Assembly (NCBI GenBank): GCA_023246005.1
Contig: JAHFJG010000007.1
Span: 7,312-71,311, forward strand
DNA from: Candidatus Doudnabacteria bacterium
GTDB lineage: Bacteria > Patescibacteriota > Doudnabacteria > UBA920 > O2-02-FULL-48-8
Direction: 5' to 3'
DNA: 64,000 nucleotides
In this document: piece by piece, positions 12,246 through 53,487 of the stretch
How the letters are laid out: each line of letters opens with the position of its first letter
Numbering within the stretch: position 1 is the stretch's first letter
The notes under the pieces: model-generated
Told to the model about the DNA's origin: nothing
The model's database searches: none
The model's input: only the letters and a program-made list of their open reading frames with translations
Position numbers and translations under genes: made by a program

Positions 12246-12263
12246 TCGGATGTCATTCGTGGA

Positions 12264-13352: not shown

Positions 13353-13363
13353 TTTGTTATCTG

Positions 13364-13807: not shown

Positions 13808-13842
13808 GTTGCAAAGTAAAAAGTTAAAGGTAAAAAATAAAA

Positions 13843-14256
13843 CTAATCGTTATTCTTAAGGGAAACTATGCTAGCGCCTAGTATTTTTGATAATTCTTCA
13901 GCTTCGAGCAACAATTCTTTTGCTTTGTTAGGTTCAGCTTTAGCTGAATCAATCATTAAATTAAGCCAAAATTTTGTTTCGTTCGCAGATTTTAGAGCAT
14001 ATAAGTAAAAATTGATAAAATCCTTTCTGCTGCTAGCAGCTATGGCTTCAATTATATTGGCACCAATGCTTGTTCCACAACGCAATAGCTGTCGAGCCAG
14101 AATCTGAACATTAAAGTCCTTTTTGTCTAAAGTATCAATAAATACTATAACTTCTAGGGCAAATTTATAGCTTCTCGATTTAATGTCTATTTTTATTTTA
14201 GAGTTAGTTTCAGACATTTGCAGTAACTTTTCCACAATAACTATAACATAAAACAA
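13843..14256 (-). CDS. four-helix-bundle protein (23S-IVS protein family); probable true start at ATG 14217
   Basis: SIGANIIEAIAASSRKDF...ALKSANETKFWL, a family-typical motif. The listed start is TTG. Confidence 0.75.
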   Translation of the reverse strand: MFYVIVIVEKLLQMSETNSKIKIDIKSRSYKFALEVIVFIDTLDKKDFNVQILARQLLRCGTSIGANIIEAIAASSRKDFINFYLYALKSANETKFWLNLMIDSAKAEPNKAKELLLEAEELSKILGASIVSLKNND

Positions 14257-14314
14257 TCAAATTACCAAAAAGCCAGGGCGGCTTCCCAGGCTTTTACTTT
14301 TGACTTTTTACCTT

Positions 14315-14755
14315 TTACTTCATGAAAGCTTTTATCCACTTCATCCAGCCCTCTCCTTCATCCTCGTAATTATTCCAAAATTCTTCCGGCCTGACTATTT
14401 TTGTGCCTTGGAATTTTTCAAGCTTAAGAAGATGTTGATCAGAAGTAATCAAATAATCAGCATTGCAAGTAACGGCTGATTCTAAAATTTTATTGTCCTC
14501 GTCATCCTCAACAACGTGCAAAGATTCGCCTGGGCCAATCTGGCTGACCATTTCAAAAAAATATTCCAGTTTTTTGAGATAACCTTCATCATTAATTTTC
14601 TTCTGGGCTAAGAATTTATTTTCTCGCAAAGTGCCTTTGTTGGCATAAGCCTCAACTTGTCTGGCAATAACTAAATCTATGATCCTGTTAGCATAACTGT
14701 GATCATCATTTGATGCGTCTATTAAAGCATTGGTGTCAATCACGACTTTGAGCAT
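14315..14755 (-). CDS. PIN-domain protein (VapC-like putative toxin); no adjacent canonical antitoxin ORF
   Basis: N-terminal VVIDTNALID plus conserved acidic residues downstream (ITSDQHLL). Confidence 0.7.
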   Translation of the reverse strand: MLKVVIDTNALIDASNDDHSYANRIIDLVIARQVEAYANKGTLRENKFLAQKKINDEGYLKKLEYFFEMVSQIGPGESLHVVEDDEDNKILESAVTCNADYLITSDQHLLKLEKFQGTKIVRPEEFWNNYEDEGEGWMKWIKAFMK

Positions 14756-14792
14756 AAAAAGGTTGTAGGTTATAGTTGGTAGGTTGTAGTTA
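14756..14792. repeat. left arm of a ~35-bp inverted repeat bracketing the 4HB gene 14790-15152
   Basis: AAAAAGGTTGTAGGTTATAGTTGGTAGGTTGTAGTTA. Reverse complement of 15226-15260 begins with the same 14 bp AAAAGGTTGTAGGT and shares GGTAGGTTGTAG. Confidence 0.6.
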
Positions 14793-15152
14793 GGACTTAT
14801 CTAATTCTTGGGTCATCTTATTAAGCATGCGCATTATTTCATCCAAAAGATCAACCACGATCAAACTTTTGGCATCATTCCCAAAACCAAGCTTTTTAGA
14901 AATTATCAACTGAGTTTCTAATTCTGCGCCGGATCCATAAGCTGTGAATAAAAAATGACGGTAATCTTTTTTAGTTCCACGCTTACTACCTTCAGCAATA
15001 TTTGACGGGATCGAAACCGCACATCTACGCATTTGGGAAGTCAAACCAAATTGTTCTTCTCGAGGAAAATCTTTTGTTAATCCATAGACTGCAACCACCA
15101 GGTCTAGGGATTTTTGCCAAACAATGAGATCCTTATAAGATGATAAACTCAT
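14790..15152 (-). CDS. four-helix-bundle protein (23S-IVS protein family)
   Basis: Classic motif KDLIVWQKSLDLVVAVYGLTKDFPREEQFGLTSQMRRCAVSIPSNIAEG. Confidence 0.85.
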   Translation of the reverse strand: MSLSSYKDLIVWQKSLDLVVAVYGLTKDFPREEQFGLTSQMRRCAVSIPSNIAEGSKRGTKKDYRHFLFTAYGSGAELETQLIISKKLGFGNDAKSLIVVDLLDEIMRMLNKMTQELDKS

Positions 15153-15225: not shown

Positions 15226-15260
15226 TCTACAACCTATAACCTACCACCTACAACCTTTTA
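15226..15260. repeat. right arm of the inverted repeat bracketing the 4HB gene 14790-15152
   Basis: TCTACAACCTATAACCTACCACCTACAACCTTTTA. It abuts the stop codon of the upstream gene. Confidence 0.6.
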
Positions 15261-16730
15261 TAGTCTTTCAATTTCCTTACGAAGGTCTGCGATTGCTTCA
15301 AATTCTTGCAGCGTCAAATCGCTGCCGGCTTTGTTCGCGGCATTTTTGAACACCACTGTTCTATCAGCATTATTATCATGAATCATGGCAGAGCCAATTT
15401 GCAGATAAATCTTAAACAATGGGCTTTGTTCAAAGGCATTAACGACATAATACGGCAACAGCCGGTTGGCTTGCGCCAGATAAATGATTCGAGATTGGAG
15501 ATTCGAGATTTGAGCTTGCAAAGTTCCCGCGCGCAGATAGCTTAAATCAACTTTTTTCAAATCATCAACGATTTGAATATCATTTAATGATTTCGAAGGA
15601 GTCAATTTGACTGAAGCGGGCCTGTAATAATTCTCCGGTGCGACTGAAGACGGCAGAAACTTTGTAGGTAAAGGAACGGGCTTTGAGATCCGCAATCCTG
15701 AATTCATTTCAGGATCTCTTTTTTGAGATACTGAAACCCCTGAACTTGATTCAGGGTCAGCATTGCGAGGCGGAGAAACCAATTCCGGAGTTTTCACTTC
15801 ACGCTTAATTTCTTCCGGCGTCATCTTCACAAGCGTTTGTTTGCTGCTATCTGATATCTGTTTACTGATCCCTGTTTCCCCCATTTGCCGCCGCAAAACT
15901 TCCAGGTCTTGGCCGTGAGAAGGAGTTGGTGGTCTGGGAGGAGTTCGTGGTCGTGGGGCAACTGGTATATTCTGATTTTTAACAACTTGCTGGAAATCTA
16001 CTGTTGCTTCTTCAAAGGCTGTTCCGTATTTGAGCCAATCATAAAGCTCTAGAATAATAAGCAACAACTTTCGATCGGTATTGGACAACTTCCGGACAGT
16101 TTGGTTCTGATTTATGTACGTAATCCTTTCTATAGCTCCTCTTGTTTCGAGTATAGGTCCTGCTTTTCTTGTGTTTCGATCATAATCCAATAACCAGTTG
16201 CCTATTGAGGGTGGGACATTTTTATCTGCTATTGTTAGGGGATTACTACCAACTGTAACAAAACTCCTAAGCATGATATTAGCCAATGACTCGGCAATCG
16301 CTCCTTCTTCTCTAACGTCATCATAAACATTTAAAACATCCTGAAACTTTTCTTGGATTGGTATTTTGGCCTTTATTGCATCTGTCAGATGGTTCTTGAT
16401 CAAATTTTCTATTTCTGCAAAGGGCCTTGAGGACAAACATTCAAATTTCAACAGGACTATCAATTTCTGATATTTTTCGTACAGCTCCGGGGACTCAGTT
16501 TTCAGTTCTGGGTATTTGCCAATCAATATGTCTTCCAAAAGCATCCGAGCTTTCAAGGCCTCTTCCCGGTTATCAAACTCAATGCTTCCTTCAACTATTT
16601 GCTTGAACTGCTCAAAAACCTCCGGATATGCTAACTGCTTTCTGTCCGTGATGAAAGACAATGGTGTTGTATTACCAACCACAGCGGAGTTAGATGTTGT
16701 GCTTTGCTGAATTAGAGTTTCGTCTGGCAT
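15258..16730 (-). CDS. hypothetical protein (490 aa, Pro-rich linker), T4SS-locus associated
   Basis: Intact ORF between the 4HB gene and the VirB6-like gene. PRPRTPPRPPTP linker. No recognisable catalytic motif. Confidence 0.3.
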   Translation of the reverse strand: MPDETLIQQSTTSNSAVVGNTTPLSFITDRKQLAYPEVFEQFKQIVEGSIEFDNREEALKARMLLEDILIGKYPELKTESPELYEKYQKLIVLLKFECLSSRPFAEIENLIKNHLTDAIKAKIPIQEKFQDVLNVYDDVREEGAIAESLANIMLRSFVTVGSNPLTIADKNVPPSIGNWLLDYDRNTRKAGPILETRGAIERITYINQNQTVRKLSNTDRKLLLIILELYDWLKYGTAFEEATVDFQQVVKNQNIPVAPRPRTPPRPPTPSHGQDLEVLRRQMGETGISKQISDSSKQTLVKMTPEEIKREVKTPELVSPPRNADPESSSGVSVSQKRDPEMNSGLRISKPVPLPTKFLPSSVAPENYYRPASVKLTPSKSLNDIQIVDDLKKVDLSYLRAGTLQAQISNLQSRIIYLAQANRLLPYYVVNAFEQSPLFKIYLQIGSAMIHDNNADRTVVFKNAANKAGSDLTLQEFEAIADLRKEIERL

Positions 16731-16736: not shown

Positions 16737-19640
16737 TTATTTTGCATGTATATAGGCTCGTTTCTCTTTTCCTGCGGAATCTTTTTCGTCAGGAATATAG
16801 CCAGAAGGCCTCCAGCTCATGTCTTCCGGTCTTGTGTCTGGAGCCGGCGCGCCAGACCCGCTAAAATGCTTGAATGCCGCATCTAATTTTGAATCTCCTG
16901 AAGCATCGGCTAATTTTGTTCTTCCAAAATCAATCAAGGCGCTCATAGTTTCTCTATACTCTTTCTGCACTTTAGGATCTTGAATCAAATTAGCCGCCTC
17001 AAATATACGTTTCACATTCTGCGGCTTAGCCGCATTCATGGCTTGGTTCGCATTCATTTCATTTCTATTCACCCGGTTTTTGATAGCCTGATAATTAGTC
17101 ATATAATAGGTCAAACCAACTTCGTTGATGATCGAATCTCTTTTACCGCTAACGCCATAATCAGCAGCAGGAACTTCGTCGTAGAATATCAAACGGTTAC
17201 CTTCTCTCGTCAGCTTGGAGTCGTCTAGTTTAGCGTTCTCAGCAGCCTGTTCATTTTTTCGATCCTGTGCACTCTTCATCTCCAGACGGCCGTGTTTCGA
17301 TTCGTACATACGCATAATCGTCCTGTGTCCGCGTTTCTCAGCCAGATCACTGACATCACTCATGATTAGCATAGAACCTTGTTCACCCATGCCTAACTTC
17401 TCTTCCAAAATTTGTTTTCTGAAATCATCCATGCCTTCTGCCGAATAAGTCATGAATTCTCCAGCTTTATGTTGCTTTCCGTCAGCACCGATCATGTCTC
17501 TAGTATATTGGGTTTTATTTACCAATTCGTTATCATTATACGTGTCTGTCAGGTGCATAAGAATTGCGTTTGCCCGAGCTTGTTTACCCTCTTCTACGGC
17601 GCTATTAAATAAATCCACTAACTCATGCCAGTTATCAGTAAGAATATTTTTCTTCTCCTCATCCATGGCATGCCGGATCTTTTTCTGGGTAAAGTAATCG
17701 TCTGGATACATCAATGATTGTCCCTTCAACTCTGTCGCCCTTGCTCGGGCGAGTATCTGTTCTCTTGACTCCGTACCAAATGCTTTTTCTGCTTCATCGG
17801 CTTGGTCCAAAAGAGCTTGGGCTTTGACGCGCTTATCGGTTATTGCCAGATCCTTAGCTGCTTTTCCGTTTACATCAATAGCTGGCAGGGCTGCCTTTTC
17901 TCTCTCCAATTGCCTTGCTTCTTCTAGAGCTTGTTGTGCTTGCTTACGCAACTCCAATGGTGCATTCGCCTTTGTTTTTAATTCTTCCGCATCATGTAAT
18001 AATTCTCTTCCAGTTTCCGATCCACCGCCACGAGCTTTTTTTATCCCGCCCTTACCAAAATACCGCTGAAAAAAAGTAACTGGCGAAGCAAGGGCAGAGC
18101 CTTTTTCATATGCTTTGGTCATTCCCGCAGTTTCTCTAGCCGCTCTATTAATCTCCCGGGATTCTTTCCAACCCTCAATCCATTTCGCAGGTCGAATTTC
18201 TCTGCCGGTTCTTGCCTTATAGACCTCCGCCCCATAATTGGCTCCAGCCTTGACTCCTGCCCAAGCCCCTTTCTTCATCAAATTCTTGGCTCCACTGACC
18301 CCGCTCATTATCATATCCCCCCCCACCATCCCCGCTTGCTTGGCCACCAATACCGCGGCTGCCAAAAATGCTATTTCAATAAAGTAAATAAATGCAGTGC
18401 CATTTCCTTGGCCATTCTTCCAACCTGTCCAACTAAATCCATCTGATATAACTAAAGTATCTAATCTAATCATAAACAAAGCCACTGGCGCCCAAATCAA
18501 ATATTTAAGAAAGTGACTCCACCATTCTTCTGCGTATTTTTTGGTCGCCGGCAGAATATTTGCCACATAAGCAATAGGTGAAAAAATAATCAAAATGTAC
18601 AAACCCACAAGCCGGATAATAAACATTCCAGCCAGAGCTATAAATACAACTGCAGATACAAGCTGATAAAAGATTTTTCCTAAACTTAAAACAAGAGCTG
18701 TTGATGATCCTCCTGTAACGATAAGTCTAAAATCTTCCGCAGGCCAAGCCTGAGCGAAAGCCGTAGAAGCAATCTGTTTTCCCATTCCATCTTGATAAAA
18801 CACCGCGGCCAAAAAATTCACGGCATTCATGATAGTAACTGCGATAACTTGACTAAAGTTAACTAAAAGAGCCGCTATTATTAAATCTCTGAGCAAGTGG
18901 CCATATTCTTGATAATTTTTCAATCGTAAAATTACACCAAAGCCAATGACTATTAATGCCAAAATAAAAAACATATTACAGATATCGCGGACGACCATCC
19001 AGCCAATATTAACCGCTCTTGGCAAAGTCGTAATATTGATTATATTCCCCACAACTTCGCTGAAAATACTACCGGCAATAGAAGTCACAATTGCCAATAC
19101 TGCTGAAATAATTGAAGCTACGAAATCTAAAATCCATCCAATCACTTGACTGATAACATTAGCGGGGTCTTGAAATTTTTTCATATCAGCTGCTGCTTCA
19201 GCTATTCCTGTTTGATTTATTCCAGTTCCATTGACTATTGACGCTCTAACTGCTTGCATCTCAATCGGTATTTTTGTAATATCTTGAGTTGATGAAATGC
19301 CATCTGATAGAACTGGCCAGCTACCTGGCGCAGTTTCACAATAAGGTTCAGGTATTCCGCCTGTAGCAATTAATCCCCAAACTGCTCTGTACTTTTTCTG
19401 AGAGGCCTGTAATAATTTATCGCTCAATGCTTTACAGCCTGCTTCATTGGTTGCATTATCATAATCAGCTTTAGTAATAGTTACATTTGTTGTTGGCGCT
19501 GGCGTGGGAGCCGGGGCTGGAGCTGGAGTTTGCCCAAACGCAAAATTGGCAAGCAGAAGATTGGCCAGTAGAATTGCTGTTAAAATTTTGGTTATGCGGT
19601 TGAATTTTTGTTTTGGTTTCACTTTTGGAAAATTAGTCAA
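16737..19640 (-). CDS. VirB6/TrbL-like polytopic membrane protein with long hydrophilic C-terminal region
   Basis: Signal peptide plus PAPAPAPTPAPTT linker, at least 6 TM helices in the central part, and a long charged coiled-coil C-terminus, next to virB4. No searches run. Confidence 0.45.
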   Translation of the reverse strand: MTNFPKVKPKQKFNRITKILTAILLANLLLANFAFGQTPAPAPAPTPAPTTNVTITKADYDNATNEAGCKALSDKLLQASQKKYRAVWGLIATGGIPEPYCETAPGSWPVLSDGISSTQDITKIPIEMQAVRASIVNGTGINQTGIAEAAADMKKFQDPANVISQVIGWILDFVASIISAVLAIVTSIAGSIFSEVVGNIINITTLPRAVNIGWMVVRDICNMFFILALIVIGFGVILRLKNYQEYGHLLRDLIIAALLVNFSQVIAVTIMNAVNFLAAVFYQDGMGKQIASTAFAQAWPAEDFRLIVTGGSSTALVLSLGKIFYQLVSAVVFIALAGMFIIRLVGLYILIIFSPIAYVANILPATKKYAEEWWSHFLKYLIWAPVALFMIRLDTLVISDGFSWTGWKNGQGNGTAFIYFIEIAFLAAAVLVAKQAGMVGGDMIMSGVSGAKNLMKKGAWAGVKAGANYGAEVYKARTGREIRPAKWIEGWKESREINRAARETAGMTKAYEKGSALASPVTFFQRYFGKGGIKKARGGGSETGRELLHDAEELKTKANAPLELRKQAQQALEEARQLEREKAALPAIDVNGKAAKDLAITDKRVKAQALLDQADEAEKAFGTESREQILARARATELKGQSLMYPDDYFTQKKIRHAMDEEKKNILTDNWHELVDLFNSAVEEGKQARANAILMHLTDTYNDNELVNKTQYTRDMIGADGKQHKAGEFMTYSAEGMDDFRKQILEEKLGMGEQGSMLIMSDVSDLAEKRGHRTIMRMYESKHGRLEMKSAQDRKNEQAAENAKLDDSKLTREGNRLIFYDEVPAADYGVSGKRDSIINEVGLTYYMTNYQAIKNRVNRNEMNANQAMNAAKPQNVKRIFEAANLIQDPKVQKEYRETMSALIDFGRTKLADASGDSKLDAAFKHFSGSGAPAPDTRPEDMSWRPSGYIPDEKDSAGKEKRAYIHAK

Positions 19641-20761: not shown

Positions 20762-21298
20762 TTATTTAAAGCCAATGTCGCCCCTAGGTTTTTCTTCAAA
20801 TGCCAACAGCTTTTTGATGGCCTGGAATACGACTTTAAATTGCTGATCATATTTCTTTTCTAATTTTTCTATCTTTTCTCGCAACTCTCTATTTGTCGCC
20901 AACATTTCCCTTATCTTGGTAAACGTTCTCATTATCTGGATATTTACCTGTACTGCTCGTTTGCTGTGTAGAACGCTGGACAGCATAGCCACTCCATGTT
21001 CAGTAAACACCAAAGGCGCTTTGCGTAATCCCATCTTTTCGCGATTGGAAGTGCCAAATTGGAACTTCCAAATTTCCATTTCTTTTTTACTCATTTGAAA
21101 CATAAAGTCATCAGGAAACCTGTCTAGATTGCGCCTGACCGCGCGGTTAAGTATTTTGGTTTCTACTTGATAAAGTTCAGCTAGATCCTTGTCAATCATC
21201 ACTTTTTTGCCACGAATAAAATAAATTTTACTTTCTAATCTTTTTTCAGGTAAAACAATTTTATAATTTTCTTTATTCATATGTTTCCGCAAAAGCAA
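20762..21298 (-). CDS. ORF6N/KilA-N-like domain protein (phage antirepressor-type DNA-binding domain)
   Basis: FIRGKKVMIDKDLAELYQVETKILNRAVRRNLDRFPDDFMFQMS matches the ORF6N family. Probable ATG start at 21280. Confidence 0.65.
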   Translation of the reverse strand: MLLRKHMNKENYKIVLPEKRLESKIYFIRGKKVMIDKDLAELYQVETKILNRAVRRNLDRFPDDFMFQMSKKEMEIWKFQFGTSNREKMGLRKAPLVFTEHGVAMLSSVLHSKRAVQVNIQIMRTFTKIREMLATNRELREKIEKLEKKYDQQFKVVFQAIKKLLAFEEKPRGDIGFK

Positions 21299-21575: not shown

Positions 21576-23339
21576 CTAAGGGTTGCAGCTATTGCTAAAA
21601 TAACACGCCGTGTCTGGATCGCCAGGGTTGGTTGCCGGACCTGCATATTTCACACTTGCTTCTGTGGATGGCGGGCCTCCCAGCCATTGCGGGTTGTTGG
21701 CTCCTCCACTATCGCCCAAAATATCCGCACCCGAATTATCCGGATACGCAACAATGTCAGTTGCCAACCCATCGCATTGACCGGAGTGCCAAGTGGTCAG
21801 CGCCCCTGCGCCTTCGCCGCGCAATACCCAGGCCACGCGTTTGGTAATTTCAAACGCGCCGCAGTTGCCGCTTAAGTTTACGCCTTCGTCAACCAGATAT
21901 TTTTTCACCTGCCTGACTACTTCCGTATGATCCGGCATAGTGCAGGCGATTGCGGTGGGAACATCAACGCAGGTTGGCCCGGTGCCCGGGGTTGGCGGCG
22001 GAGTAATGGTCATAGCCGTCTTAGAGCCCTGGCATGGAGGACCGGTGGTCACTGTTGTCGAGCCATCGGGATTGGTTACCGGAAGCCCGCCATAAATACA
22101 AATATCCGGCTGGCCGTCGCCGTTGGTGTCATAACCGTCAATGATGCCATCGCCGTCGATATCAATCCCATTACTGCCAGGGGTAAACTCCCCGTACGTG
22201 GCGTCTGGATTATATTGTCCATTATAATCCGGCAAAGCCTGGCCTGATTTATTATCTGAACTATCCAAGGTTAATTGATTGAAGATGAAATTGCCGAACA
22301 GGGAACCGATAATCGCCCAAAAATTATTGGGATTAAAATTAGCATCGAGCTTGGTTAAAATCGAACCGCTTAAATATTTATCAACTGTTGCCGTGGGATT
22401 GTCGATAAATGACCTGGCTGTATCCAGCGCGGACGCATTCCATTTGCCTCCGCCAGCGGCACAGCTGACCGGATCCCAAAACCCGTCGCCATTGGTTTTC
22501 CCCCAATCAACGTTATCGGTTTGGTTGCTGCAAAAGCCGCCAATCACGCGGCCGGCTTTCAAACCGTAACCAGCCGCGACTTCAAGCTGTGCCGCTGTGG
22601 TAGCAGATGATTGGAATGCCCCAAATTGTCCCTGCAAATTTTGTTCGGTAAAGCTCCGCGGATTGGCAAAATAGGCTTGAGACATGGCAAAATAATCCCG
22701 ATCCGACATATTGGCCGGCGGATAGTAGACTTTATTCGGGTCAATGCCGCCTTGTTTAATATAATAATCAGCCATGGCTTTTTTAAGCTGTGGGATCAAG
22801 GCCTTCCTTGGATCCGGCGCGTTGGGATCCTTGGGATTAGCGCCGGTGGGCTGGCCTGTGACGTAACCGCGATACATCATGGTGTAAATTCCGCGCAAAT
22901 CAGGATCAGAAATCTTATCCGCTAAAAACTGATACAAATAATAGTCAGACAGATACTTGTCATAATAGAGAAAGTTCCTAATCCGATATTTGTCTTGCAG
23001 CTTATTGGTTAATCTGGTTAAATATTTATTAGAGATATTTAAGGCAACCGCCCTTAAAGCTCCTAGCGCGAGGTCTTTGCCTATTTGATATAAATCGCCG
23101 ATTTTTATCACAAGATCGGGCAGCCCGGGAATTAAACCTGCTTCCGCAGGTTTTGGCAGAAATAAACCAATGGAGACAATGGCAAACTGGCTGATTATGA
23201 AAATCGTCAAAACTAATGCTGCTGATGATTTTACTAGTCTGCTATTTGGCATTTTGGTATTTATTTTGAAGCCGGTTGGTTTCCAAAGTAATTTTTTGGA
23301 ATAAGCTGAATGTTGCCTGCGTTTTATCATACCAGGCAT
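21576..23339 (-). CDS. secreted or membrane-anchored hypothetical protein with thrombospondin-type-3-like Ca-binding motifs; C-terminal half GC-rich
   Basis: TM or signal at MPNSRLVKSSAALVLTIFIISQFAIV. Motifs DIDGDGIIDGYDTNGDGQPD. Gly/Pro/Thr-rich C-terminus. Confidence 0.4.
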   Translation of the reverse strand: MPGMIKRRQHSAYSKKLLWKPTGFKINTKMPNSRLVKSSAALVLTIFIISQFAIVSIGLFLPKPAEAGLIPGLPDLVIKIGDLYQIGKDLALGALRAVALNISNKYLTRLTNKLQDKYRIRNFLYYDKYLSDYYLYQFLADKISDPDLRGIYTMMYRGYVTGQPTGANPKDPNAPDPRKALIPQLKKAMADYYIKQGGIDPNKVYYPPANMSDRDYFAMSQAYFANPRSFTEQNLQGQFGAFQSSATTAAQLEVAAGYGLKAGRVIGGFCSNQTDNVDWGKTNGDGFWDPVSCAAGGGKWNASALDTARSFIDNPTATVDKYLSGSILTKLDANFNPNNFWAIIGSLFGNFIFNQLTLDSSDNKSGQALPDYNGQYNPDATYGEFTPGSNGIDIDGDGIIDGYDTNGDGQPDICIYGGLPVTNPDGSTTVTTGPPCQGSKTAMTITPPPTPGTGPTCVDVPTAIACTMPDHTEVVRQVKKYLVDEGVNLSGNCGAFEITKRVAWVLRGEGAGALTTWHSGQCDGLATDIVAYPDNSGADILGDSGGANNPQWLGGPPSTEASVKYAGPATNPGDPDTACYFSNSCNP

Positions 23340-31027: not shown

Positions 31028-31602
31028 CAGATTGAAATTAAGAATAATTCGGATTTAATGTTTCGCTCTAAAATATACTCAATAAACTTATTGATGGTAT
31101 GATGATTAAGCTGATCAACATCCTTCGGGATTTTAAAACCTAAGATCTCAAGTAATTCTACACAGAAGGAGTCCAGTAATCTAAAATACTGTTCCGAGTA
31201 ATTCTGACGGTCAAGGTTATAAAAAAAATCTGTCAATAAATTATAAGCCTCCGGATTCGGATGTTCGTCTGCTGTCATCTTCAGCATCAATTCTGCGGCA
31301 TAAAACGCAATCGCGGTTTTTTTAAGGTCTGTACGCAAGCTATTGAATTGCCGTACAGGCTTGGCTCCAATCAATGTTGGCAAATGCTTGCCAGCCAGAT
31401 ACAGTTCAACTTGGGCCAAATCCTGACACGCGTAATTAAGCTTGCTGGCCGGCTTGCGCAATGATTTGGCTAAAATGCGGACTTTGCCAGCTTCTTGGGT
31501 CCAGCAGCTAACTATTTGATCGGCTTCCCTGTAGTTTTGTTTCTTGAGGATTATGCCTGTGAGTTTTTTGTATTTCATCGTAAAATTTCTAACGGGATTC
31601 AT
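31027..31602 (-). CDS. recO: DNA repair protein RecO-like
   Basis: N-terminal OB-fold region KLTGIILKKQNYREADQIVSCWTQEAGKVRILAKSLRKPASKL. Length and context fit. Start overlaps the ileS stop. Confidence 0.55.
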   Translation of the reverse strand: MNPVRNFTMKYKKLTGIILKKQNYREADQIVSCWTQEAGKVRILAKSLRKPASKLNYACQDLAQVELYLAGKHLPTLIGAKPVRQFNSLRTDLKKTAIAFYAAELMLKMTADEHPNPEAYNLLTDFFYNLDRQNYSEQYFRLLDSFCVELLEILGFKIPKDVDQLNHHTINKFIEYILERNIKSELFLISI

Positions 31603-34600
31603 TATTTCTTTAAAGCAATGGTCACTTTTTTGTCGCCGATCATAATCTCTTCCCCGCCACTTAACCCCGTTTCTCCATTTATTCCCTTTATGTACGTCTT
31701 TTTTGTATCAAACAGTTCAAATGCAGCTCTTAATTCCGCGTCATCTGTATCATACGATAAATTGACCGATTCGCCAACCTTAAGTCCCGATTTTTTGCGC
31801 ATCTCTTGCACTGCTCGTTCCAGCTCGCGAGCCAGGCCTTCTTTTTTCAACTCTGGAGTAATTTCTAAATCAAATTCAAGCTTGTCCCCCAACTTAACTG
31901 CCTTAACATTCAACTCATCAGCTAAAATTTCCTCAAATTCTTTTGCTAATTTTTCTTTAGCATTATAAACAACTGACGCCAGTGGCTGTCGCAATTTTAG
32001 ATTCGAGGACTTTCTCAACGCATGACCTTGCTCGACGAGATTTCTGACTAACCGCATTTGATCCAAAACTGTTTTTTGTTCCTTGCTCAATTCTTTCTTT
32101 TCTGGCCAAGAAGCTAAATGGACTGATACCGTTTCTGTCTTATGATTCAAATTCAGGTAAATCATTTCCGACATATAAGGCATAACTGGCGCAGAGACTT
32201 TAGACAAAACCAAAAGTGCGTGCCGCAGAGTTCCAAAAAAATGGCTGTCTTTGCGGCCTCTGCTTCTTCGCAAATACCATGTTGAAAGTTCATTGATGTA
32301 ATCTTCTATCGCTCTTGTGGCTTTAACCGTGTTATACCCGTCAAGCTGATCGGTTACCTCGTTTACCAATTTTTGTATCTTAGCAACAATCCATAAATCC
32401 AAAACATTCGTTAAGTCAGGCTTGTATCCGGCCGGTTTCGGTTCCCATCCGGCTTCGTTGGCGTATGTTACGAAGTAGTTAAAGATGTTCCAAAGAATCA
32501 AAATATTTTTGCGATAAACAATTCCTAATTCTCTTTCGTTGAAATCTAAATTCTCGGCTTGCATTACTGGCGAGCTCATCAAATAGAATCTCAACGCATC
32601 AATTCCGTACTTTTCAATCACTTCCCACGGATCCGGATAATTATTTTTTGACTTGCTCATCTTGGAACCATCTTCAGCCTGAATCGTACCTGTCGTCACG
32701 ACATTTTCAAACGGCGCTTTGCCGAACAAATTGTAAGACACCACGTGCATGACATAAAACCATGCTCTGGTTTGCGCTATGTATTCGGCCACAAACTGCG
32801 CAGGAAAACGGCTTTCAAACACCTCTTTCTGGTCAAACGGATAGTGATACTCGGCAAACGGCATGCTGCCAGCCTCGACCCAAGAATCAAAGATTTCGCT
32901 GATTCTATGGGCATCTTTGCCGCATTGCTTGCACTTAATCACAATTTCATCAATGTACGGCCGGTGCAAATCAACAATGCTGACGTCCATTTCATAGGCT
33001 TCGCCGAGTTTTGGGTATTCCAGTTCTGACCCAAAATATTTCTGCAAAATAAACAATGGGTCGCCGTGGCCGACAACTAAAATCTTTTTTCCTTCATATT
33101 TTTGATTGATTTCTTGCACAAATTCAAGCATGCGCTTTTGCACATCCAGATTACTCTCCCCACCATCTGGTCCTTTTTCCCATCGGGCTTCAAACGGAAA
33201 TGCTTTCCAAAGTTCGTCGTAACTTTTGCCGTTGTAAACGCCGGTATTAAATTCGTGTAGACGGGCATCAAACTGCACTTCGACTGCCAATGCTTGGCCA
33301 ATCAACTCGGCCGTTTCTTTGGTGCGAGTGATGTCAGAAGCAAAAATTAAATCAATTCCTGCTTGTTTCAATCTACTACTTGCAGCTTCGGCTTCTTTTG
33401 TTCCCGTCGCGGTCAAAGAATACTTCTTTTTTCTCTCCGGAAAACAATCATTGATTCCAAGGATGTTGTTCTCGGCTTCGCCATGGCGAGCAAAATAAAA
33501 AGTATTTCGACTCAAACCTAATTCCTTGATCGAACCAACCACAGTGACGTGTCCATCTTCACATTTCCAAACCGGAATTGGATTACCCCAATAACGGTTG
33601 CGGGAAATGTTCCAGTCGGGCGCGGCTTCGACTGACTTTTGGTAGCGGCCGTGTTTGAGGTGGTCTGGAAACCAATTGATTTCTTTTTCATTAGTTTTCA
33701 GAAGTCCTGGCTTGATTTTTTGAATATTCATAAACCATGCGGGAATCGCATTGTAATAAAGTGTCGTGCCGCAGCGCCAACAATGCGGATAAGAATGTTT
33801 GTGCTGTTGCTTGGCAAACAATAATCCCCTGCTTTCCAAATCTTTCTTAATGACTTTTTCTGAATCTTTAAAATACATCCCGCGGATCAACTCTGGAGCC
33901 TTGTCATTGAACTTCCCTTTTTCATCAAGCAAAGGAACCACGGGCAAACCAACTTTTAAGCCCAAATTATAGTCATCTTCGCCATAAACTACGGCAGCAT
34001 GAACAATTCCTGTGCCCTCTTCTGTGTTCACAAAATCAGCAGCGTAAACTTTAAAAGATTTGTCAGTTATAACATCAGGAACTTCAAATAACGGCTCGTA
34101 TTCTAAGCCGACCAAATCCTTGCCTTTTAACTTCTCAAGCACCTCAAAACCATCGCGAGCCTGCGAAGCAGGCGTGGCGATCTTGTCTTGGATTGCCGCG
34201 TCGCCGCCATGACTTATACTTTGAGAAAAGCGGCTCCTCGCAATGGTTTCTGCAAGCCTTTCTTTTGCCAAAATATAAAACTCGTCACCAACTTTCACTT
34301 TCACATAATCAATATCTTCACCAACCGCTAGCGCCACATTGCCCGGTAAAGTCCAGGGCGTTGTTGTCCAGGCCAATAGATAAGTATTGGCGAATTGCGG
34401 ATTACGAATTGCGAATTTCACTGTCACGGTTTCTTCGGTCACTTCCTGATAACTGTTGTCCATAGCCACTTCAAAGTTGCTGATCGGCGTTTCGCACCGC
34501 GGGCAGTACAATAGCACACGCCGGCCTTCGTAAACCAATCCTTTATCGTAAATTTGTTTGAACGCCCACCAGACCGATTCCATATAGTCGCGGTCCATGG

Positions 34601-35057
34601 TTTTGTAAGAATTATCAAAATCAACCCAGCGGGCAATTCGCCGCACGGTTTTCTTCCACTCCGTGACATACTCCAAAACCATGCTCCGACAAGTTTCATT
34701 AAATTTTTTTATTCCCAGTTTTTCAATGTCTTTTTTGCCGGAAATTCCAAGTTTGCGCTCCACAATTTCTTCAATCGGCAGACCATGACAATCCCAGCCC
34801 CATCTGCGCCGGACAAACCGGCCTTTCATAGTCTGATAGCGCGGAAATAAATCTTTGACTGTGGAGCCTAAAATGTGTCCGTAGTGCGGCGTGCCGGTGG
34901 CAAACGGCGGGCCATCATAAAAAGTGTACGGTTTGCCGTTTTTGGTTTGCTCCAAAGATTTGTGAAAAATCTGATTATCTTCCCAAAACTTCAAAACCTC
35001 TTCCTCAAGCTTTGGAAAATCTGGCTTAGGATCGATTGGTTTGAATGTATTGCTCAT
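31602..35057 (-). CDS. ileS: isoleucyl-tRNA synthetase with an inserted histidine-phosphatase (PGAM-like) domain
   Basis: HIGH motif PHYGHIL and KMSKS motif KMSKSKNNY. Also WNISRNRYWGNPIPVW and a zinc-finger CxxC. About 170 extra residues (aa about 518-690) carry RHGEAENN and VVGHGDP motifs. Confidence 0.9.
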   Translation of the reverse strand: MSNTFKPIDPKPDFPKLEEEVLKFWEDNQIFHKSLEQTKNGKPYTFYDGPPFATGTPHYGHILGSTVKDLFPRYQTMKGRFVRRRWGWDCHGLPIEEIVERKLGISGKKDIEKLGIKKFNETCRSMVLEYVTEWKKTVRRIARWVDFDNSYKTMDRDYMESVWWAFKQIYDKGLVYEGRRVLLYCPRCETPISNFEVAMDNSYQEVTEETVTVKFAIRNPQFANTYLLAWTTTPWTLPGNVALAVGEDIDYVKVKVGDEFYILAKERLAETIARSRFSQSISHGGDAAIQDKIATPASQARDGFEVLEKLKGKDLVGLEYEPLFEVPDVITDKSFKVYAADFVNTEEGTGIVHAAVVYGEDDYNLGLKVGLPVVPLLDEKGKFNDKAPELIRGMYFKDSEKVIKKDLESRGLLFAKQQHKHSYPHCWRCGTTLYYNAIPAWFMNIQKIKPGLLKTNEKEINWFPDHLKHGRYQKSVEAAPDWNISRNRYWGNPIPVWKCEDGHVTVVGSIKELGLSRNTFYFARHGEAENNILGINDCFPERKKKYSLTATGTKEAEAASSRLKQAGIDLIFASDITRTKETAELIGQALAVEVQFDARLHEFNTGVYNGKSYDELWKAFPFEARWEKGPDGGESNLDVQKRMLEFVQEINQKYEGKKILVVGHGDPLFILQKYFGSELEYPKLGEAYEMDVSIVDLHRPYIDEIVIKCKQCGKDAHRISEIFDSWVEAGSMPFAEYHYPFDQKEVFESRFPAQFVAEYIAQTRAWFYVMHVVSYNLFGKAPFENVVTTGTIQAEDGSKMSKSKNNYPDPWEVIEKYGIDALRFYLMSSPVMQAENLDFNERELGIVYRKNILILWNIFNYFVTYANEAGWEPKPAGYKPDLTNVLDLWIVAKIQKLVNEVTDQLDGYNTVKATRAIEDYINELSTWYLRRSRGRKDSHFFGTLRHALLVLSKVSAPVMPYMSEMIYLNLNHKTETVSVHLASWPEKKELSKEQKTVLDQMRLVRNLVEQGHALRKSSNLKLRQPLASVVYNAKEKLAKEFEEILADELNVKAVKLGDKLEFDLEITPELKKEGLARELERAVQEMRKKSGLKVGESVNLSYDTDDAELRAAFELFDTKKTYIKGINGETGLSGGEEIMIGDKKVTIALKK

Positions 35058-43936: not shown

Positions 43937-44319
43937 GGGGCTGTTTAGATTCGACAAAAGTTCTTTGATAAATACTGCAAGTCCGATTAGCCTAATTTCT
44001 CGGTTAAAAAAATAAGGCAAATCATAAATGCCAATTCTTTGGTAAGCAAGATTAAGAACGCTTTTGCGTTCTCTCCTGCTTTGGCAGTCGCTTAAACAGT
44101 TACTGCCCATCTGTCCTGCAAAGTCTGTGCGCAGATCACAGGTGTTATATTATCGGACTTACTTTAGTTGACGCCTGACAGCTAAAGGACACTTAAGGCT
44201 GACCTTAAGGCGCTTTGGTCTGCTTCTATGTCTTAAGGGAAATTTTAAAGCAGTCTAAGCTTGTAGAAGTATTTGTTAAAATCTTTTGGACGGGAGTGCA
44301 AATCTCCCCAGCTCCACCA
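43937..44319 (+). ncRNA. ssrA: tmRNA (ssrA)
   Basis: 5' end GGGGCTGTTTAGATTCGAC. 3' end has T-arm GGGAG-TGCAAAT-CTCCC, acceptor CAGCTCC, then ACCA. G3-U70 pair. Candidate tag reading frame ends ...AFAFSPALAVA*. Confidence 0.7.
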
Positions 44320-44910: not shown

Positions 44911-46524
44911 ATGGTTACCCCAGAACTTATCGAGTATATTAAATCGCGATTGGCGGCAGGTGAAAATGTAGAGACAATTCGAACAAGTCTAAAACAAGCA
45001 AATTGGGCTGACCAAGATATAGAGGAAGCATTAAAAAACGAAGCTGGTCTTATTAACAACGAAATTCAGGCTATTGTAGCACCTAAGACTAATTGGTTTT
45101 TAAGGCATAATGTTTTATATTCTTTAATAGGCGTTTTGCTTTTGGTTGTGATTGTGGGATCGGTATACTGGTGGCAGCAAATCAAAAAGACTAACGAGTT
45201 GCACCAAGCAGTTACAGATCAGTTTGCTGATCTGGATATCAATGGCTCGGCTGAATATAAAACCTATGTTGAATCTATCGATAAAATTGGCGACCAATGG
45301 GCAGCAACTGAAGCTCAAATGAAAGCAAAGGGCTCAAGCCCTGAAGATATTGAATTGGCGAAAAGAGAATTTTTTCAATTTTTTGCTTCGACTCTTCTGC
45401 TGAAAATAAAGTTTGAGGGAACAACAATGAGTAACAGAGAAAAAGAAGCTGTCGCAAGTAAACTGCAACAATTGTCAAAGGATATAAACATTAATTTATC
45501 AGTTGATACAGGCTGCGAATACACAGAACAAAAATTAACTCTCCAAAATTTCTTTGTTGGTGCTACACTTAAATTTAAGAAGCCAATGGTCTATGTAGAC
45601 TGGAAAGAAGAGCAAGCAAAATATTGCTCTCCAAGTTATGCTTCAGCCAAATATTATTCTTTGGAATCAGCTAGTCAGTGGAACAGTACAATCTTTGATA
45701 AAGAAGGTAGAGGGATAAAGGATTATAAAATTGATCCTTCGGTTACTTTTAAAGTAGAAGGCAGATTCAAACTACATAGCCGAAGCCTATTTAGCGAAGG
45801 TAATCGGGATCACTATATCATCAAGGATAGCAATGGTGTAATTAGTATAGTTCCATTTTTCGATATTTTTGATCAATATTATAAAACTGATACTGTAGAC
45901 GATGGCGAAGCTGGTGCTGAATTATACAAAAACGGCCAGTACATCGGATATGTTGTTTCTGATATACATAGCGGCGGCGTTTGGATCCATGGTGCTCCAA
46001 TCCCGCAGGATGTAATAGATGCAAATACTCCAGAAATACCGACCAGCTTTACTGGCCCCACATCAAAACGAACGGAATTTATGCAGCGAGTAGCTGTAGC
46101 CATTGGTGATGGGAAGATTGTGAATTACACTAGTCAAGAAATAATCAACTCGGATCTAGGTAAGGATTTATATACCTATAAAGACGGAGAAGTCATTAAC
46201 GACTTTGGAGGTAAAATAACGATTAAAAAGAATGGCGATAAGGTATCCGTCATATTTGATAAAATTCCCAAGGGAGAAGACTGTTATGAATTTTATTACA
46301 TAAATGATCCAGAAACTTATGGTTTCAAAGAGAGTTATATTGATGGAGTTCTTGAAGAGTATGATTTTACGAATTCCAAGAATTGGAATCCGATTATTGA
46401 TGCATTTAAACAAAAAGTGTGTTTTCCTGCTAATGGAACAACTACGATAGAATTTCGTGGCAACATTAATGATATTAAAAATGCCGCGCTTTGGATTAAG
46501 AAACGATATGATCCAAAATATTAG
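44911..46524 (+). CDS. hypothetical membrane-anchored protein (537 aa)
   Basis: One TM helix LYSLIGVLLLVVIVGSVYWW. No recognisable domain. Confidence 0.3.
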   Translation: MVTPELIEYIKSRLAAGENVETIRTSLKQANWADQDIEEALKNEAGLINNEIQAIVAPKTNWFLRHNVLYSLIGVLLLVVIVGSVYWWQQIKKTNELHQAVTDQFADLDINGSAEYKTYVESIDKIGDQWAATEAQMKAKGSSPEDIELAKREFFQFFASTLLLKIKFEGTTMSNREKEAVASKLQQLSKDININLSVDTGCEYTEQKLTLQNFFVGATLKFKKPMVYVDWKEEQAKYCSPSYASAKYYSLESASQWNSTIFDKEGRGIKDYKIDPSVTFKVEGRFKLHSRSLFSEGNRDHYIIKDSNGVISIVPFFDIFDQYYKTDTVDDGEAGAELYKNGQYIGYVVSDIHSGGVWIHGAPIPQDVIDANTPEIPTSFTGPTSKRTEFMQRVAVAIGDGKIVNYTSQEIINSDLGKDLYTYKDGEVINDFGGKITIKKNGDKVSVIFDKIPKGEDCYEFYYINDPETYGFKESYIDGVLEEYDFTNSKNWNPIIDAFKQKVCFPANGTTTIEFRGNINDIKNAALWIKKRYDPKY

Positions 46525-51153: not shown

Positions 51154-51649
51154 TGTTGTTTCCTCTCTTTTATCAAATTGACCTATCTATTATACCACAA
51201 GGTTTAAAAAACATAATAACCAGGTGAGAGAGCCTGGTTATTATGTGTATTGAAAGACAGTATTTGTGAGGAAAGCTACTATTTTGGTAACCCCTCACCA
51301 CTGACCTTCAATTTGGTATTCCCTGTCCAGAACAAATCTTCGGTGGTTAAGCCTAATGATTGTGTTCCAGGCCGGAAATAAGCGAATTTAAAAGGTGCGA
51401 TCTTTGAGTTTCTTGAATTTCTGTTTTTGTTTCAAACTAGGCGAACAAACCTAAACCATCCTTCATATGTTAGGATCGTTTAGTTTGCTTAGCGCCCGAT
51501 TTGGAAAACCATATTGTTATTTTGTCTTGATTTCTACTTGAGTATTTTTTATACTATAAATAGTATAGCAAATTTTTCGGTTCTTGTAAAGAGCGATTTG
51601 ACAATAATTAGCCATAAGAATACAATTTATTTACTTTAACAATTATTAA

Positions 51650-51775
51650 TTGACAGTTCCATTAAGGTCGGTTGGGGAAGTGGGCGTAAATCCCACACTG
51701 TGCCGCAACTGTAATTGTTACGTGTTACATGATAAATGTTACGTGACTTAAGTCAGAGTACCAACCAACTGTCAA
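51650..51775 (+). promoter_or_regulatory. candidate cobalamin (AdoCbl-type, short variant) riboswitch aptamer
   Basis: P1 TTGACAGTT/AACTGTCAA encloses GGGGAAG..GGGCGTAAATCCCAC..CTGTGCCGCAACTGTAA (compare consensus AGGGAA..GGTGnAAnTCC..CCCGCnACTGT.A) and a B12-box-like AAGTCAGAGTACCAACC. Confidence 0.45.
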
Positions 51776-51790
51776 ACTACAAATATGACA

Positions 51791-51819
51791 CCTCTTCGAG
51801 CAAAGAGGAGCGCTTTTTT
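51791..51819 (+). terminator. terminator-like hairpin (CCTCTTcgagcaAAGAGG...TTTTTT) forming a putative expression platform; a second hairpin at 51832-51856 could sequester a GGAGG
   Basis: Hairpin plus T6 between the aptamer and the ATG at 51874. Confidence 0.4.
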
Positions 51820-51873
51820 AAATCATAAAAGGCCGCTTCCTTCTTGGAGGCGGTCTTATTTAGAAAGGCGTAT

Positions 51874-53487
51874 ATGAGAAGACTCGTTGTCTTACTCAGT
51901 TTTGGCGCGATTCTGTTCGGCCCCTTGACGGTGTTTGCTAGTTACAACCAAACATCTGCAGAAAGTTATTTAACGGCGCATGCGAGTAATCCCTGGAGTA
52001 CCATGGCCCTGGCCATGCTCAATTCCAGTTCTATCCCATCAGATTATCTCAAAACGATTAATGGGACAACTGCCATCGAATATGCAGCTCCCATCCTTGC
52101 CATCACAGCCTTGGGTCAGGACCCGCGAACTTTTGGCGATAAAGATCTTATCGCAGAACTAGAAAAATTTCACACAAGTAATCAAATCGGCGATACAGCT
52201 ACAATTAATGATGATATCTTCGGCCTGTTCGCCTTGCTCTCTGCAGGAGTTCCGAACAATGATCCAACAATTATAGATGCTGAAAATTTTATCCTCGCGC
52301 ACCAGCAAGCCAATGGCGGCTGGGGCTTTGCTACCAGCGGCGGTACTGACAGCAATATGACCTCTGCGGCAATTGTCGCACTCATCGCGGACGGAGTTTT
52401 GGCAACAGATACTAAAATTCAAAACGCCTTAGATTATCTGAAGACTGCGCAAAATGCCGACGGCGGGTTTACCTATGACCCGCAAAGTCAATTTGGAACA
52501 GATTCGGATTCTTCTTCCACTGCCTGGGTCCTCTGGGCGCTTAATGCCGCAAAAATTAATCCTGACGACTGGACCAAACCTAACGGCTCCCCGACTTCGT
52601 ATTTGGAATCTAACCAAGTTGCAACTGGTTTCTTCAAATATCAAAGCATTTCCACTGAAGATTCTTTTTCAGCGACAACCACAGCTTATGCCGTGATGGC
52701 GCTAAACGGAAAAACTCTGCCTCTCAATATCTTTACTGCTCCAATTCCGACTTTTACACTGACCTATATTGCGGGGCCAAACGGCAGTCTAACGGGATCG
52801 GCTTCCCAAACAGTAAGTTTGGGTGCTGATGGGACAGCGGTCACTGCGGTAGCCGTAGACGGCTTTCATTTCAGTAATTGGAGCGATGGCGTGCTTGCTG
52901 CTGCCCGCACTGACACGAATGTCTCAACAAATATCTCTGCCACGGCAAACTTTGTAGTTGACCTTAAAGGCGGAGGCGGATGGGGCGGAGGGGGAATCTT
53001 CTGCTTAGACTGCAGCACTTTTGTGCCAAGCACAACTGTAACTTCAGCCCCAACTCCGAACCCAACCCCACCAAGCCATATTCCTATACCAACAAATCCG
53101 CCTGGGCAGGTTTTGGGAACGACCGCTTTCGCTTCGGGCACTTTAGTCAAAACAACAAATGATGCCACTGTCTATATCGTAGAAAACGAGAAATACCGAC
53201 CGTTTAGCAATGAGCTGACATTCCTTACCCGCGGGTTAAGATTTTCGGATGTTCAAATTATTGATTCTAATCTCATAAGCACAAATAACTTTGGAAAGAT
53301 TATGGGCTTTGCTGACGGCATTTTGATCAAAGGAAGTTCAGCAACAGTGTACATGATTTTAAAAAACACCAAACTCGGCTTTGTATCCATGGGCGTTTTA
53401 TCGCGGATGAAATTGTCTTTAGACAACGTTGTCGAAATCAGCGATGCAGATTTGGCTAGTTATGACGATGGCGAGATAATGCAATAA
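51874..53487 (+). CDS. secreted alpha/alpha-toroid protein (prenyltransferase/squalene-cyclase-type repeats) with C-terminal ~60-aa surface repeats; candidate extracellular cobalamin-binding protein
   Basis: Signal peptide MRRLVVLLSFGAILFGPLTVFA. Repeats HQQANGGWGF and AQNADGGFTY. C-terminal modules TVYIVENEKYRPF...GLRFSDV are homologous to the C-terminus of 39650-43537. Confidence 0.45.
   Translation: MRRLVVLLSFGAILFGPLTVFASYNQTSAESYLTAHASNPWSTMALAMLNSSSIPSDYLKTINGTTAIEYAAPILAITALGQDPRTFGDKDLIAELEKFHTSNQIGDTATINDDIFGLFALLSAGVPNNDPTIIDAENFILAHQQANGGWGFATSGGTDSNMTSAAIVALIADGVLATDTKIQNALDYLKTAQNADGGFTYDPQSQFGTDSDSSSTAWVLWALNAAKINPDDWTKPNGSPTSYLESNQVATGFFKYQSISTEDSFSATTTAYAVMALNGKTLPLNIFTAPIPTFTLTYIAGPNGSLTGSASQTVSLGADGTAVTAVAVDGFHFSNWSDGVLAAARTDTNVSTNISATANFVVDLKGGGGWGGGGIFCLDCSTFVPSTTVTSAPTPNPTPPSHIPIPTNPPGQVLGTTAFASGTLVKTTNDATVYIVENEKYRPFSNELTFLTRGLRFSDVQIIDSNLISTNNFGKIMGFADGILIKGSSATVYMILKNTKLGFVSMGVLSRMKLSLDNVVEISDADLASYDDGEIMQ

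Follow-up and report, generated by a model that had tools for sequence, protein, structure and literature searches.

Bacterial proteins that combine an alpha/alpha toroid with an SLBB domain have long been connected to vitamin B12 by prediction. Burroughs, Balaji, Iyer and Aravind defined the SLBB superfamily in 2007 and, for the secreted toroid-SLBB proteins of bacteria, predicted a role as scavengers that sandwich B12 (PMC1796856). In the same study, toroid-SLBB genes were linked with CbiO/CbiQ operons in organisms that do not synthesize B12, operons with a second, paralogous SLBB protein were taken to suggest surface complexes, and animals were proposed to have gained transcobalamin from Gram-positive bacteria. 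Its taxon list comprises low-GC Gram-positives, planctomycetes and some euryarchaea and does not include the candidate phyla radiation (CPR), and riboswitches go unmentioned (PMC1796856). DUF4430 is the domain at the C-terminus of transcobalamins (PMC4350170). In the literature searched, we found no experimental work on bacterial toroid/DUF4430 B12 binders; BtuG, BtuH and BtuJ are treated in a 2026 review on how cobamides are captured outside the cell, in which the words "transcobalamin" and "toroid" do not occur. Here we analyse a locus in a 64,000-nucleotide stretch of DNA from a Candidatus Doudnabacteria bacterium (the window), where a cobalamin riboswitch aptamer (51650-51775, + strand) stands in front of a gene for a 537-aa secreted toroid protein (51874-53487, + strand).

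CPR bacteria (Patescibacteria) have minimal genomes, and their cofactors must be imported. We think it likely that the element is an adenosylcobalamin (AdoCbl)-type OFF switch on a monocistronic gene, whose secreted and surface-retained toroid product captures extracellular corrinoid for a B12-auxotrophic CPR cell; the identity and specificity of the ligand are what we infer. Riboswitch control is about the strongest evidence that a sequence can offer by itself to tie a gene of unknown function to B12 physiology, and the argument begins with the RNA.

A first-pass annotation of this DNA had read the leader as a short AdoCbl-type cobalamin riboswitch, and a direct check found all the strings it had quoted in their places. 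P1 is formed by TTGACAGTT (51650-51658) and AACTGTCAA (51767-51775), and P2 by GGUUGG/CCAACC. Enclosed by P1 on the + strand are the core GGGGAAG (51674-51680), the core string GGGCGTAAATCCCAC (51682-51696) with the hairpin GUGGG-CGUAAAU-CCCAC (51680-51696), the core string CTGTGCCGCAACTGTAA (51698-51714) with P5 and its loop L5 (U51699-A51707, loop UGCC(G)), and AAGTCAGAGTACCAACC (51750-51766), which opens with the B12-box region AAGUCAG (51750-51756). P6 holds a variable hairpin of 27 nt, an insertion relative to the Rfam model RF01482. Upstream, a sigma-70-like promoter (TTGACA, 17-nt spacer, TACAAT; 51598-51626, + strand), recognized solely by its 11 of 12 consensus matches, has its 3' end 24 nt before P1; a transcript from this predicted promoter would begin about 15 nt before P1.

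When just the leader was scanned with permissive filters, the whole length of RF01482 (AdoCbl riboswitch; model positions 1-149) matched 51649-51818. The score is 44.7 bits (E=5.2e-7), which falls short of the gathering score of 50 and hence of the cut-off for membership. For this reason, the gathering-level Rfam scan of the 64-kb window returned one tmRNA and three tRNAs and did not list the riboswitch. Non-canonical pairs are marked solely in the outer stem of the printed RF01482 alignment. There, P1 and P2 are separated by an internal loop of 11 nt (CCAUUAAGGUC), a site that in some relatives holds an additional hairpin; plausibly, the score falls short because this loop takes the actual P1 and P2 stems off the register of the model. 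Compared with shuffled sequences, the leader folds with z=-5.2, and none of 200 shuffles was as good. GGGGAAG, GUGCCGCAACUG and AAGUCAG show little or no variation over 13 leaders and align to the RF01482 consensus.

The comparative evidence comes from relatives of the gene. A protein alignment of the window protein and 26 homologues was used to collect 80 related loci from metagenomes; in about 43 of these, nhmmer with the window element found a + strand match immediately before the gene. Of 20 loci (L009-L028), 11 have a curated Rfam model above its gathering score directly before the gene, namely RF01482 in seven, RF00174 in three and RF01689 in one, and the leaders of two loci with the protein type of the window pass the RF01482 gathering score themselves (L091, 54.7 bits; L051, 52.9 bits). 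A leader structure from MAFFT and RNAalifold was rejected and replaced, as it held 14 pairs only and mis-paired G66/G67 with the L5 loop. Instead, the RF01482 architecture was mapped by hand on the 13-leader alignment to give a covariance model, R1, with the window in its seed. R1 gave 78 matches at E<=0.01, every one on the gene strand. Its alignment of 72 distinct sequences has 93.7% standard pairs, where column shuffles give 71% and slid partners 35-50%, with double-sided changes in 16 of 21 pairs and an observed covariation score that was reached by 0 of 500 shuffles. All the helices have covariation support, and P1 itself changes in sequence and keeps its pairing in L014, L041 and L011. 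When the kissing loop described below is modelled as well, 94.7% of cells are paired in the 72 distinct leaders (72.5% in shuffles, 32-48% in slid controls), compensatory changes occur in 19 of 24 pairs and the observed score again lies beyond all 500 shuffles; all these covariation figures are from an alignment that had been fitted to the model.

Because the R1 seed included the window, a leave-one-out covariance model, R2, was built from 30 related leaders alone. In the whole 64 kb, R2 matched 51646-51822 with 98.9 bits and E=1.8e-21, with all modelled pairs canonical; it is the sole significant match in the window, the runner-up having E=0.17. The covariance-model search and the covariation among homologous leaders, both of which the first-pass annotation had proposed as checks, thus speak for its riboswitch, and despite the missed RF01482 cut-off the window RNA is, from these comparisons, almost certainly a genuine member of the cobalamin riboswitch clan.

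Downstream of P1, the hairpin P13 (CCUCUU-CGAGCA-AAGAGG; 51791-51808, + strand) is included in the RF01482 model and has a loop, L13 (UCGAGCAA), that is nearly invariant among the aligned leaders. A mutual-information scan, given no prior assignment, picked the columns of L5, the loop of the small UGU-GCC-GCA hairpin, as partners of L13. The GUAAAU loop was also considered as the partner and rejected, since its variable positions do not covary with L13 and mutual information favoured the UGCC loop. In the window, the kissing-loop pairs are U51701-A51802, G51702-C51801, C51703-G51800 and C51704-G51798. Over the 72 leaders, three of the four pairs of this L5-L13 pseudoknot helix show compensatory changes and 94.6% of cells are paired; one position reads UA in 36 sequences, GC in 12, CG in 3 and AU in 1. 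The first-pass annotation had taken the first hairpin downstream of the aptamer for a terminator. Since this hairpin (51791-51808) belongs to the RF01482 model and kisses L5, the supposed terminator is P13. A promoter/terminator scanner also listed P13 with its U-run as a terminator; this candidate was set aside, because P13 is in the aptamer-class model and a separate conserved terminator lies downstream.

That terminator occupies 51831-51861 (+ strand) and is assigned from folding and positional conservation, with the stem GGCCGCUUCC/GGAGGCGGUC, the loop UUCUU and the tail UUAUUU. At its position, between P13 and the start codon, a GC-rich hairpin with a U-run is found in nine of nine leaders folded; the structure is conserved, and the sequences are unrelated. 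In the minimum-free-energy (MFE) fold the terminator stem is extended, as 51810-51823 pairs with 51858-51871, and this covers the Shine-Dalgarno (SD)-like AGAAAGG (51862-51868, + strand; 5 nt before ATG 51874), which pairs with the U-run 51814-51819. The second hairpin had been read in the first-pass annotation as one that sequesters the SD: the extended stem does cover the SD, as supposed, but the hairpin itself is an intrinsic terminator. A proposed antiterminator (51803-51845, + strand), which comes from energy models only, joins the 3' strand of P13, the spacer and the U-run (AAGAGGAGCGCUUUU) to the 5' strand of the terminator (AAAAGGCCGCUUCCUU). With P13 kept unformed in constrained folding, it folds at -14.5 kcal/mol and is no more stable than the competing partial structure at -15.2 kcal/mol; an analogous pairing appears in the unconstrained MFE fold of L014.

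We propose the following course of events. When corrinoid is plentiful, it would bind the aptamer from P1 to P6, and in the bound state L5 (UGCC) would kiss L13 (GAGCA) and lock P13. With the 3' strand of P13 engaged in this way, the GC-rich hairpin with the UUAUUU tail would form, transcription would end and the gene would be OFF; in any read-through RNA, the extended terminator stem would also bury the SD. When corrinoid is scarce, P13 would be unlocked, its 3' strand and the U-run would pair with the 5' half of the terminator as the antiterminator, and the polymerase would proceed. The protein would then be made, exported by the Sec route and kept at the cell surface through its C-terminal repeat module.

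On these folding models, it is quite likely that the riboswitch acts mainly through transcription termination. Regulation could instead be mainly translational, by sequestration of the SD, which we consider unlikely. The pairing of the U-run 51814-51819 with AGAAAGG in the extended second helix would suit such a mode, the U-tail of the terminator is interrupted (UUAUUU), and the promoter/terminator scanner did not list the 51831-51861 hairpin. However, the GC-rich hairpin with its U-run is present in all nine leaders folded, and in L014, L023, L031, L011 and L041 it lies 20-130 nt from the start codon, and is therefore unable to cover the SD there. In addition, termination and occlusion of the SD are not mutually exclusive.

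The coding sequence following this platform (51874-53487, + strand, with the stop codon at 53485-53487) is the open reading frame (ORF) of the 537-aa protein. The public gene calls of NCBI, on a contig of 92 kb, and of ENA (547 aa) begin at TTG 51844, within the terminator loop. Both the SD and the homologous N-termini agree with the ATG at 51874, and the annotated start is therefore probably 10 codons too early. On the same strand, the protein begins with a Sec-type signal peptide (aa 1-22, 51874-51939; MRR, a hydrophobic core, VFA then S), a feature common to all aligned homologues that was read from the translations. The alpha/alpha toroid follows at aa ~25-290 (51946-52743). It matches PF13243 (SQHop_cyclase_C) at 1.6e-9, with 37.7 bits against a cutoff of 26.1, its structure is predicted with a local distance difference score (pLDDT) >90, and the motifs NDDxFG, QxxxGGW, QNxDGGF and SDxSSTxW are invariant in the family, as are the residues N112, D113, D114, Q144, W150, D159, N161, Q193, N194, D196, D212, W218 and W221. 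The secreted alpha/alpha-toroid protein under riboswitch control, which the first-pass annotation had described, is accordingly there.

Beyond the toroid, a divergent InlB B-repeat (Flg_new_2; aa 295-361, 52756-52956; PF18998, 3.4e-8) and a Gly-rich then Pro/Thr-rich linker (aa ~364-410, 52963-53103; pLDDT <50) lead to a C-terminal tandem module of two ~55-aa repeats (aa 411-537, 53104-53484), delimited from the translation and a profile search. This 127-aa module has no Pfam match even at E<=10, and a word-index homology search with it returned no match, so that an exhaustive HMMER search was needed; the latter found 910 cluster representatives (50% clustering) at E<=1e-3. The carriers have 1-12 copies, mostly C-terminal, in proteins of 122-3,254 aa, and those sampled carry TIG, FIVAR, LTD, YDG and InlB-repeat domains, one of them with a weak similarity to the EccB repeat. 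From its distribution, the module is probably a widespread, unnamed surface or cell-wall-association module, and it may be what anchors the window protein at the surface.

Homologues of the protein carry the source names Uhrbacteria, Doudnabacteria, Pacebacteria, Parcubacteria, Spechtbacteria and Minisyncoccia, all of them CPR/Patescibacteria. The majority are about 600 aa long and fuse the toroid to DUF4430 (PF14478) and further beta-rich domains; close relatives share 50-68% toroid identity with the window protein and have the order toroid then DUF4430, and the InlB B-repeat of the window protein sits where these relatives carry DUF4430. NCBI labels the homologues only as "DUF4430 domain-containing" or "prenyltransferase/squalene oxidase repeat-containing", and the closest NCBIfam model, "SCO2321 family membrane protein", scores far below its cutoff. 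Of the 71 CPR loci whose upstream DNA exceeds 300 nt, 70 have the riboswitch on the gene strand, and its median distance to the start codon is 78 nt.

The architecture without a beta-domain is found in at least four loci, namely the window, L091, L051 and L088. L091 and L051 keep the riboswitch, and L088 has too little upstream DNA to judge. The link between toroid and riboswitch is therefore independent of the beta-domain. L091 is fully syntenic with the window (IF3, L20, MAP, TPR protein, toroid, DinB). As an observation on the neighbourhood, genes for tmRNA, IF3 and L20 lie near the toroid locus in L009 (tmRNA 835-1216) as well as in L091 (tmRNA 3624-4006); in the window, the tmRNA gene (43937-44319, + strand, 125.7 bits) is about 7.5 kb upstream of the riboswitch.

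A scan of a genome-contig collection with the window protein alone returned only distant relatives, from Actinomycetota, Planctomycetota and Gracilibacteria. In the six actinobacterial toroid loci (L001-L005, L008), which lie on MAG contigs, RF00174 scores above gathering upstream of the gene in every case (44.9-64.2 bits); their proteins have 30-33% identity and no DUF4430, that of L008 ends in an SLH domain, and the NCBIfam model nearest to them is "SCO2321 family membrane protein". The Planctomycetota and Gracilibacteria loci do not carry RF00174. As RF00174 precedes actinobacterial toroid-only genes, the link of toroid and riboswitch extends over two phyla and involves no fewer than two riboswitch subclasses. 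The first-pass annotation had reckoned with the case that the protein family is never associated with B12 riboswitches in other genomes; the family is so associated in 70 of 71 CPR loci and in six of six actinobacterial toroid loci.

The canonical gene also tends to have a companion. In 51 of the 64 loci with a downstream same-strand ORF, it is followed by a homologous partner gene of about 160-190 aa, the start of which often overlaps the stop codon of the toroid-DUF4430 gene (e.g. L009:5752-6288, L089:11830-12333). The partner protein, which belongs to no Pfam or NCBIfam family, combines a signal peptide with a beta-sandwich and a C-terminal membrane anchor; its beta-rich domain has the motif NPT.D.Q.FE.Y.DD and weak ASH/Cep192-like Pfam matches. 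The partner gene is absent from the window, where the downstream neighbour is a convergent DinB-family polymerase gene. The ORF at 20762-21298, considered as a partner or paralogue, is an ORF6N protein, and that at 44911-46524 (537 aa), considered likewise, has no match to Pfam or to the toroid, DUF4430 or C-terminal-domain hidden Markov models (HMMs). In L051 (5465-6388) and L088 (1187-2110), a gene for a DrrA-like ABC ATPase lies 22 nt after the toroid gene; an adjacent permease ORF was not found in L051.

The comparison with transcobalamin, which the first-pass annotation had drawn from the toroid fold, turned out better founded than the single sequence had indicated, as most relatives fuse the toroid to a transcobalamin-type DUF4430. 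At the DUF4430 segment, the family profile matches the beta-domain of human transcobalamin-2 (5no0, E=1.8e-4; 4zrp/2bb5, about 2.5e-3, with 2bb5 at 2.6e-3). The fold search is less specific. With Foldseek, the top PDB matches of the window toroid are prenyltransferase beta-subunits and terpene cyclases; the model of the canonical relative P0013 (pLDDT 84.7) gives the same ranking, and only ~214-223 residues of its toroid align to intrinsic factor and transcobalamin. The fold search does not discriminate; the homology argument is founded on the order of the domains and the sequence match of the beta-domain. The canonical toroid-DUF4430 family very probably captures corrinoids.

The same Foldseek ranking raises the question of whether the riboswitch is real and the toroid is nevertheless no corrinoid binder. 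It could be a secreted enzyme (terpene-cyclase-, prenyltransferase- or glycoside-hydrolase-like) or a glycan- or lipid-binding protein that the cell needs only under B12 scarcity, for instance in attacking a host envelope, or attaching to it, to obtain nutrients. We regard this as decidedly unlikely for several reasons. First, fusion to a transcobalamin-type beta-domain is the norm of the family and is hard to explain for an enzyme. Second, the protein differs from the class-II terpene cyclases in being a single ~265-aa toroid with a signal peptide under riboswitch control, and their DxDD motif is not intact: it is replaced by xSDSSST in the window family, as far as a weak alignment tells. In that alignment (12.5 bits, i-E 0.28), HMMER sets the family xSDSSSTAW against DVD--DTAV of squalene-hopene cyclase, so that D377 becomes Ser, D374 is not conserved and the invariant D212 may match D376. 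The NCBIfam cyclase equivalogs reach 36 bits against cutoffs of 322-431. Isoprenoid substrates are not expected outside the cell, and a cyclase role is disfavoured by the disrupted DxDD motif and by the extracellular location of the protein. Third, cobalamin regulons consist of biosynthesis, uptake and B12-independent isozymes, of which uptake is favoured for a secreted protein. Finally, the linkage of toroid-SLBB genes with CbiO/CbiQ operons in organisms without B12 synthesis (PMC1796856) also speaks against an enzyme.

Corrinoid capture by the window protein itself is a separate matter, and several observations weigh against our proposal here. Besides the sub-gathering RF01482 score and an antiterminator no more stable than its competitor, PF14478 (DUF4430/SLBB) is unmatched in the window protein, as is PF01122 (eukaryotic cobalamin binder), even at E<=10, and the family DUF4430 HMM has no match in any frame of the 64-kb window, which thus holds no stand-alone copy. 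Neither a B12-dependent enzyme nor a B12 transporter was seen among the ~25 window ORFs scanned, which are housekeeping or envelope genes, or beside the toroid gene in other loci; B12 demand and an uptake route are therefore presumed. In transcobalamin, the DUF4430/SLBB domain supplies much of the B12 contact. As the window protein has no such beta-domain, B12 binding is less certain for it than for the canonical family and is the weakest step of our proposal; high-affinity corrinoid binding is suggested by one kind of evidence, the genomic context of a near-obligate B12 riboswitch. Weighing these points on sequence grounds, we lean towards capture of corrinoid by the beta-domain-less window variant itself.

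The loss of the beta-domain, with an InlB B-repeat in its place, also admits another reading, namely that the window protein is half a binder, which needs a separate DUF4430/SLBB protein or a canonical paralogue, or that it is a decaying paralogue with its leader kept. The operons with second, paralogous SLBB proteins (PMC1796856) would be a precedent for such surface complexes, and a canonical protein (P0014) and a window-type protein (P0002) both come from the assembly GCA_034680565.1. With its more than 33,000 contigs, however, this assembly may represent a bulk metagenome, so that the shared source does not place both proteins in one genome. DUF4430 is absent from the 64-kb window, and no second toroid was found in any of its frames. 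Decay is at odds with the toroid, in which all family-invariant residues are kept and the identity to canonical toroids is 56-68%, and with the recurrence of the architecture in at least four loci. The actinobacterial toroid-only proteins are likewise under riboswitch control. Taken together, half a binder or a decaying paralogue seems very unlikely to us, and a toroid that captures corrinoid by itself is preferred.

A wider reading is possible, which we put forward tentatively and lean against at present. The toroid alone may be a self-sufficient corrinoid receptor, tethered by the unnamed C-terminal module, within a lineage-wide, riboswitch-gated B12-capture system of Patescibacteria and, with RF00174, of some Actinomycetota. 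The system would consist of the toroid, with or without SLBB, and the small membrane-anchored, Ig-like partner, and it would feed a further uptake route, which is posited because no known B12 transporter is linked to the system. If this were true, the animal transcobalamin system would have its prokaryotic root here, and we would have a first indication of how ultrasmall episymbionts obtain B12. Comparison of the canonical with the beta-domain-less form asks directly whether the toroid alone binds corrinoids.

Several other genes of the window deserve mention. An ORF at 31602-35057 (- strand) encodes a 1,151-aa isoleucyl/class-I tRNA synthetase with a His_Phos_1 domain (1.1e-33, aa 521-683) between its catalytic halves; such an insertion is an unusual fusion. 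The His_Phos_1 superfamily includes the alpha-ribazole phosphatase CobC, and a B12 link of the fusion is conceivable. At 9995-15152 (- strand), a TraG-like P-loop ATPase gene is followed by seven small same-strand ORFs, and the ORF6N-domain protein at 20762-21298 is encoded on the - strand as well (1.1e-32); these TraG-like and ORF6N genes may be remnants of a type-IV-secretion, conjugative or phage-derived element. Large ORFs with no Pfam match are located at 44911-46524 (+ strand, 537 aa), 16737-19640 (- strand, 967 aa), 21576-23339 (- strand, 587 aa) and 15258-16730 (- strand, 490 aa).

How, then, does the locus compare with what has been described? The RNA shares with the AdoCbl riboswitch RF01482 (clan CL00101) the core GGGAAG, GCCGCAACUG and AAGUCAG, a full-model match, a short P6 region that has no large peripheral extension, and a 3' P13 hairpin with the UCGAGCAA loop in a covariation-supported L5-L13 kissing loop. 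It differs in its sub-gathering score, the 11-nt internal loop between P1 and P2 and the 27-nt P6 insertion.

The functional analogues in Bacteroides are BtuG, BtuH and BtuJ (PMC6143338, PMC8941943, PMC13616437), where, as proposed here, surface capture of corrinoid for an auxotroph is controlled by a riboswitch. The analogy is one of function: the folds are unrelated, BtuJ being a beta-jelly roll, and the Bacteroides proteins are outer-membrane lipoproteins that work with the TonB-dependent BtuB, whereas here the signal peptide has no lipobox Cys and there is no BtuB.

The closest described proteins are the toroid-SLBB proteins of 2007 (PMC1796856), and the receptor, which the first-pass annotation had called undescribed, was overstated in this respect, since B12 scavengers of this kind had been predicted there. 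Close relatives of the window protein have the toroid followed by DUF4430, as these proteins do. The window protein itself differs from them, as it has no DUF4430 and carries an InlB B-repeat and the unnamed C-terminal repeat module, and CbiO/CbiQ neighbours were not seen at the window-family loci examined. The riboswitch thus belongs to a known class, and the protein is a novel architecture in a family with a previously predicted B12 role. The near-invariant gating by riboswitches gives independent regulatory support to the 2007 prediction of toroid-SLBB proteins as B12 scavengers and ancestors of transcobalamin. What is new here is the near-obligate riboswitch control across the CPR, the retention of the riboswitch by toroid-only genes of two phyla, the conserved partner with its membrane anchor and the unnamed C-terminal module.

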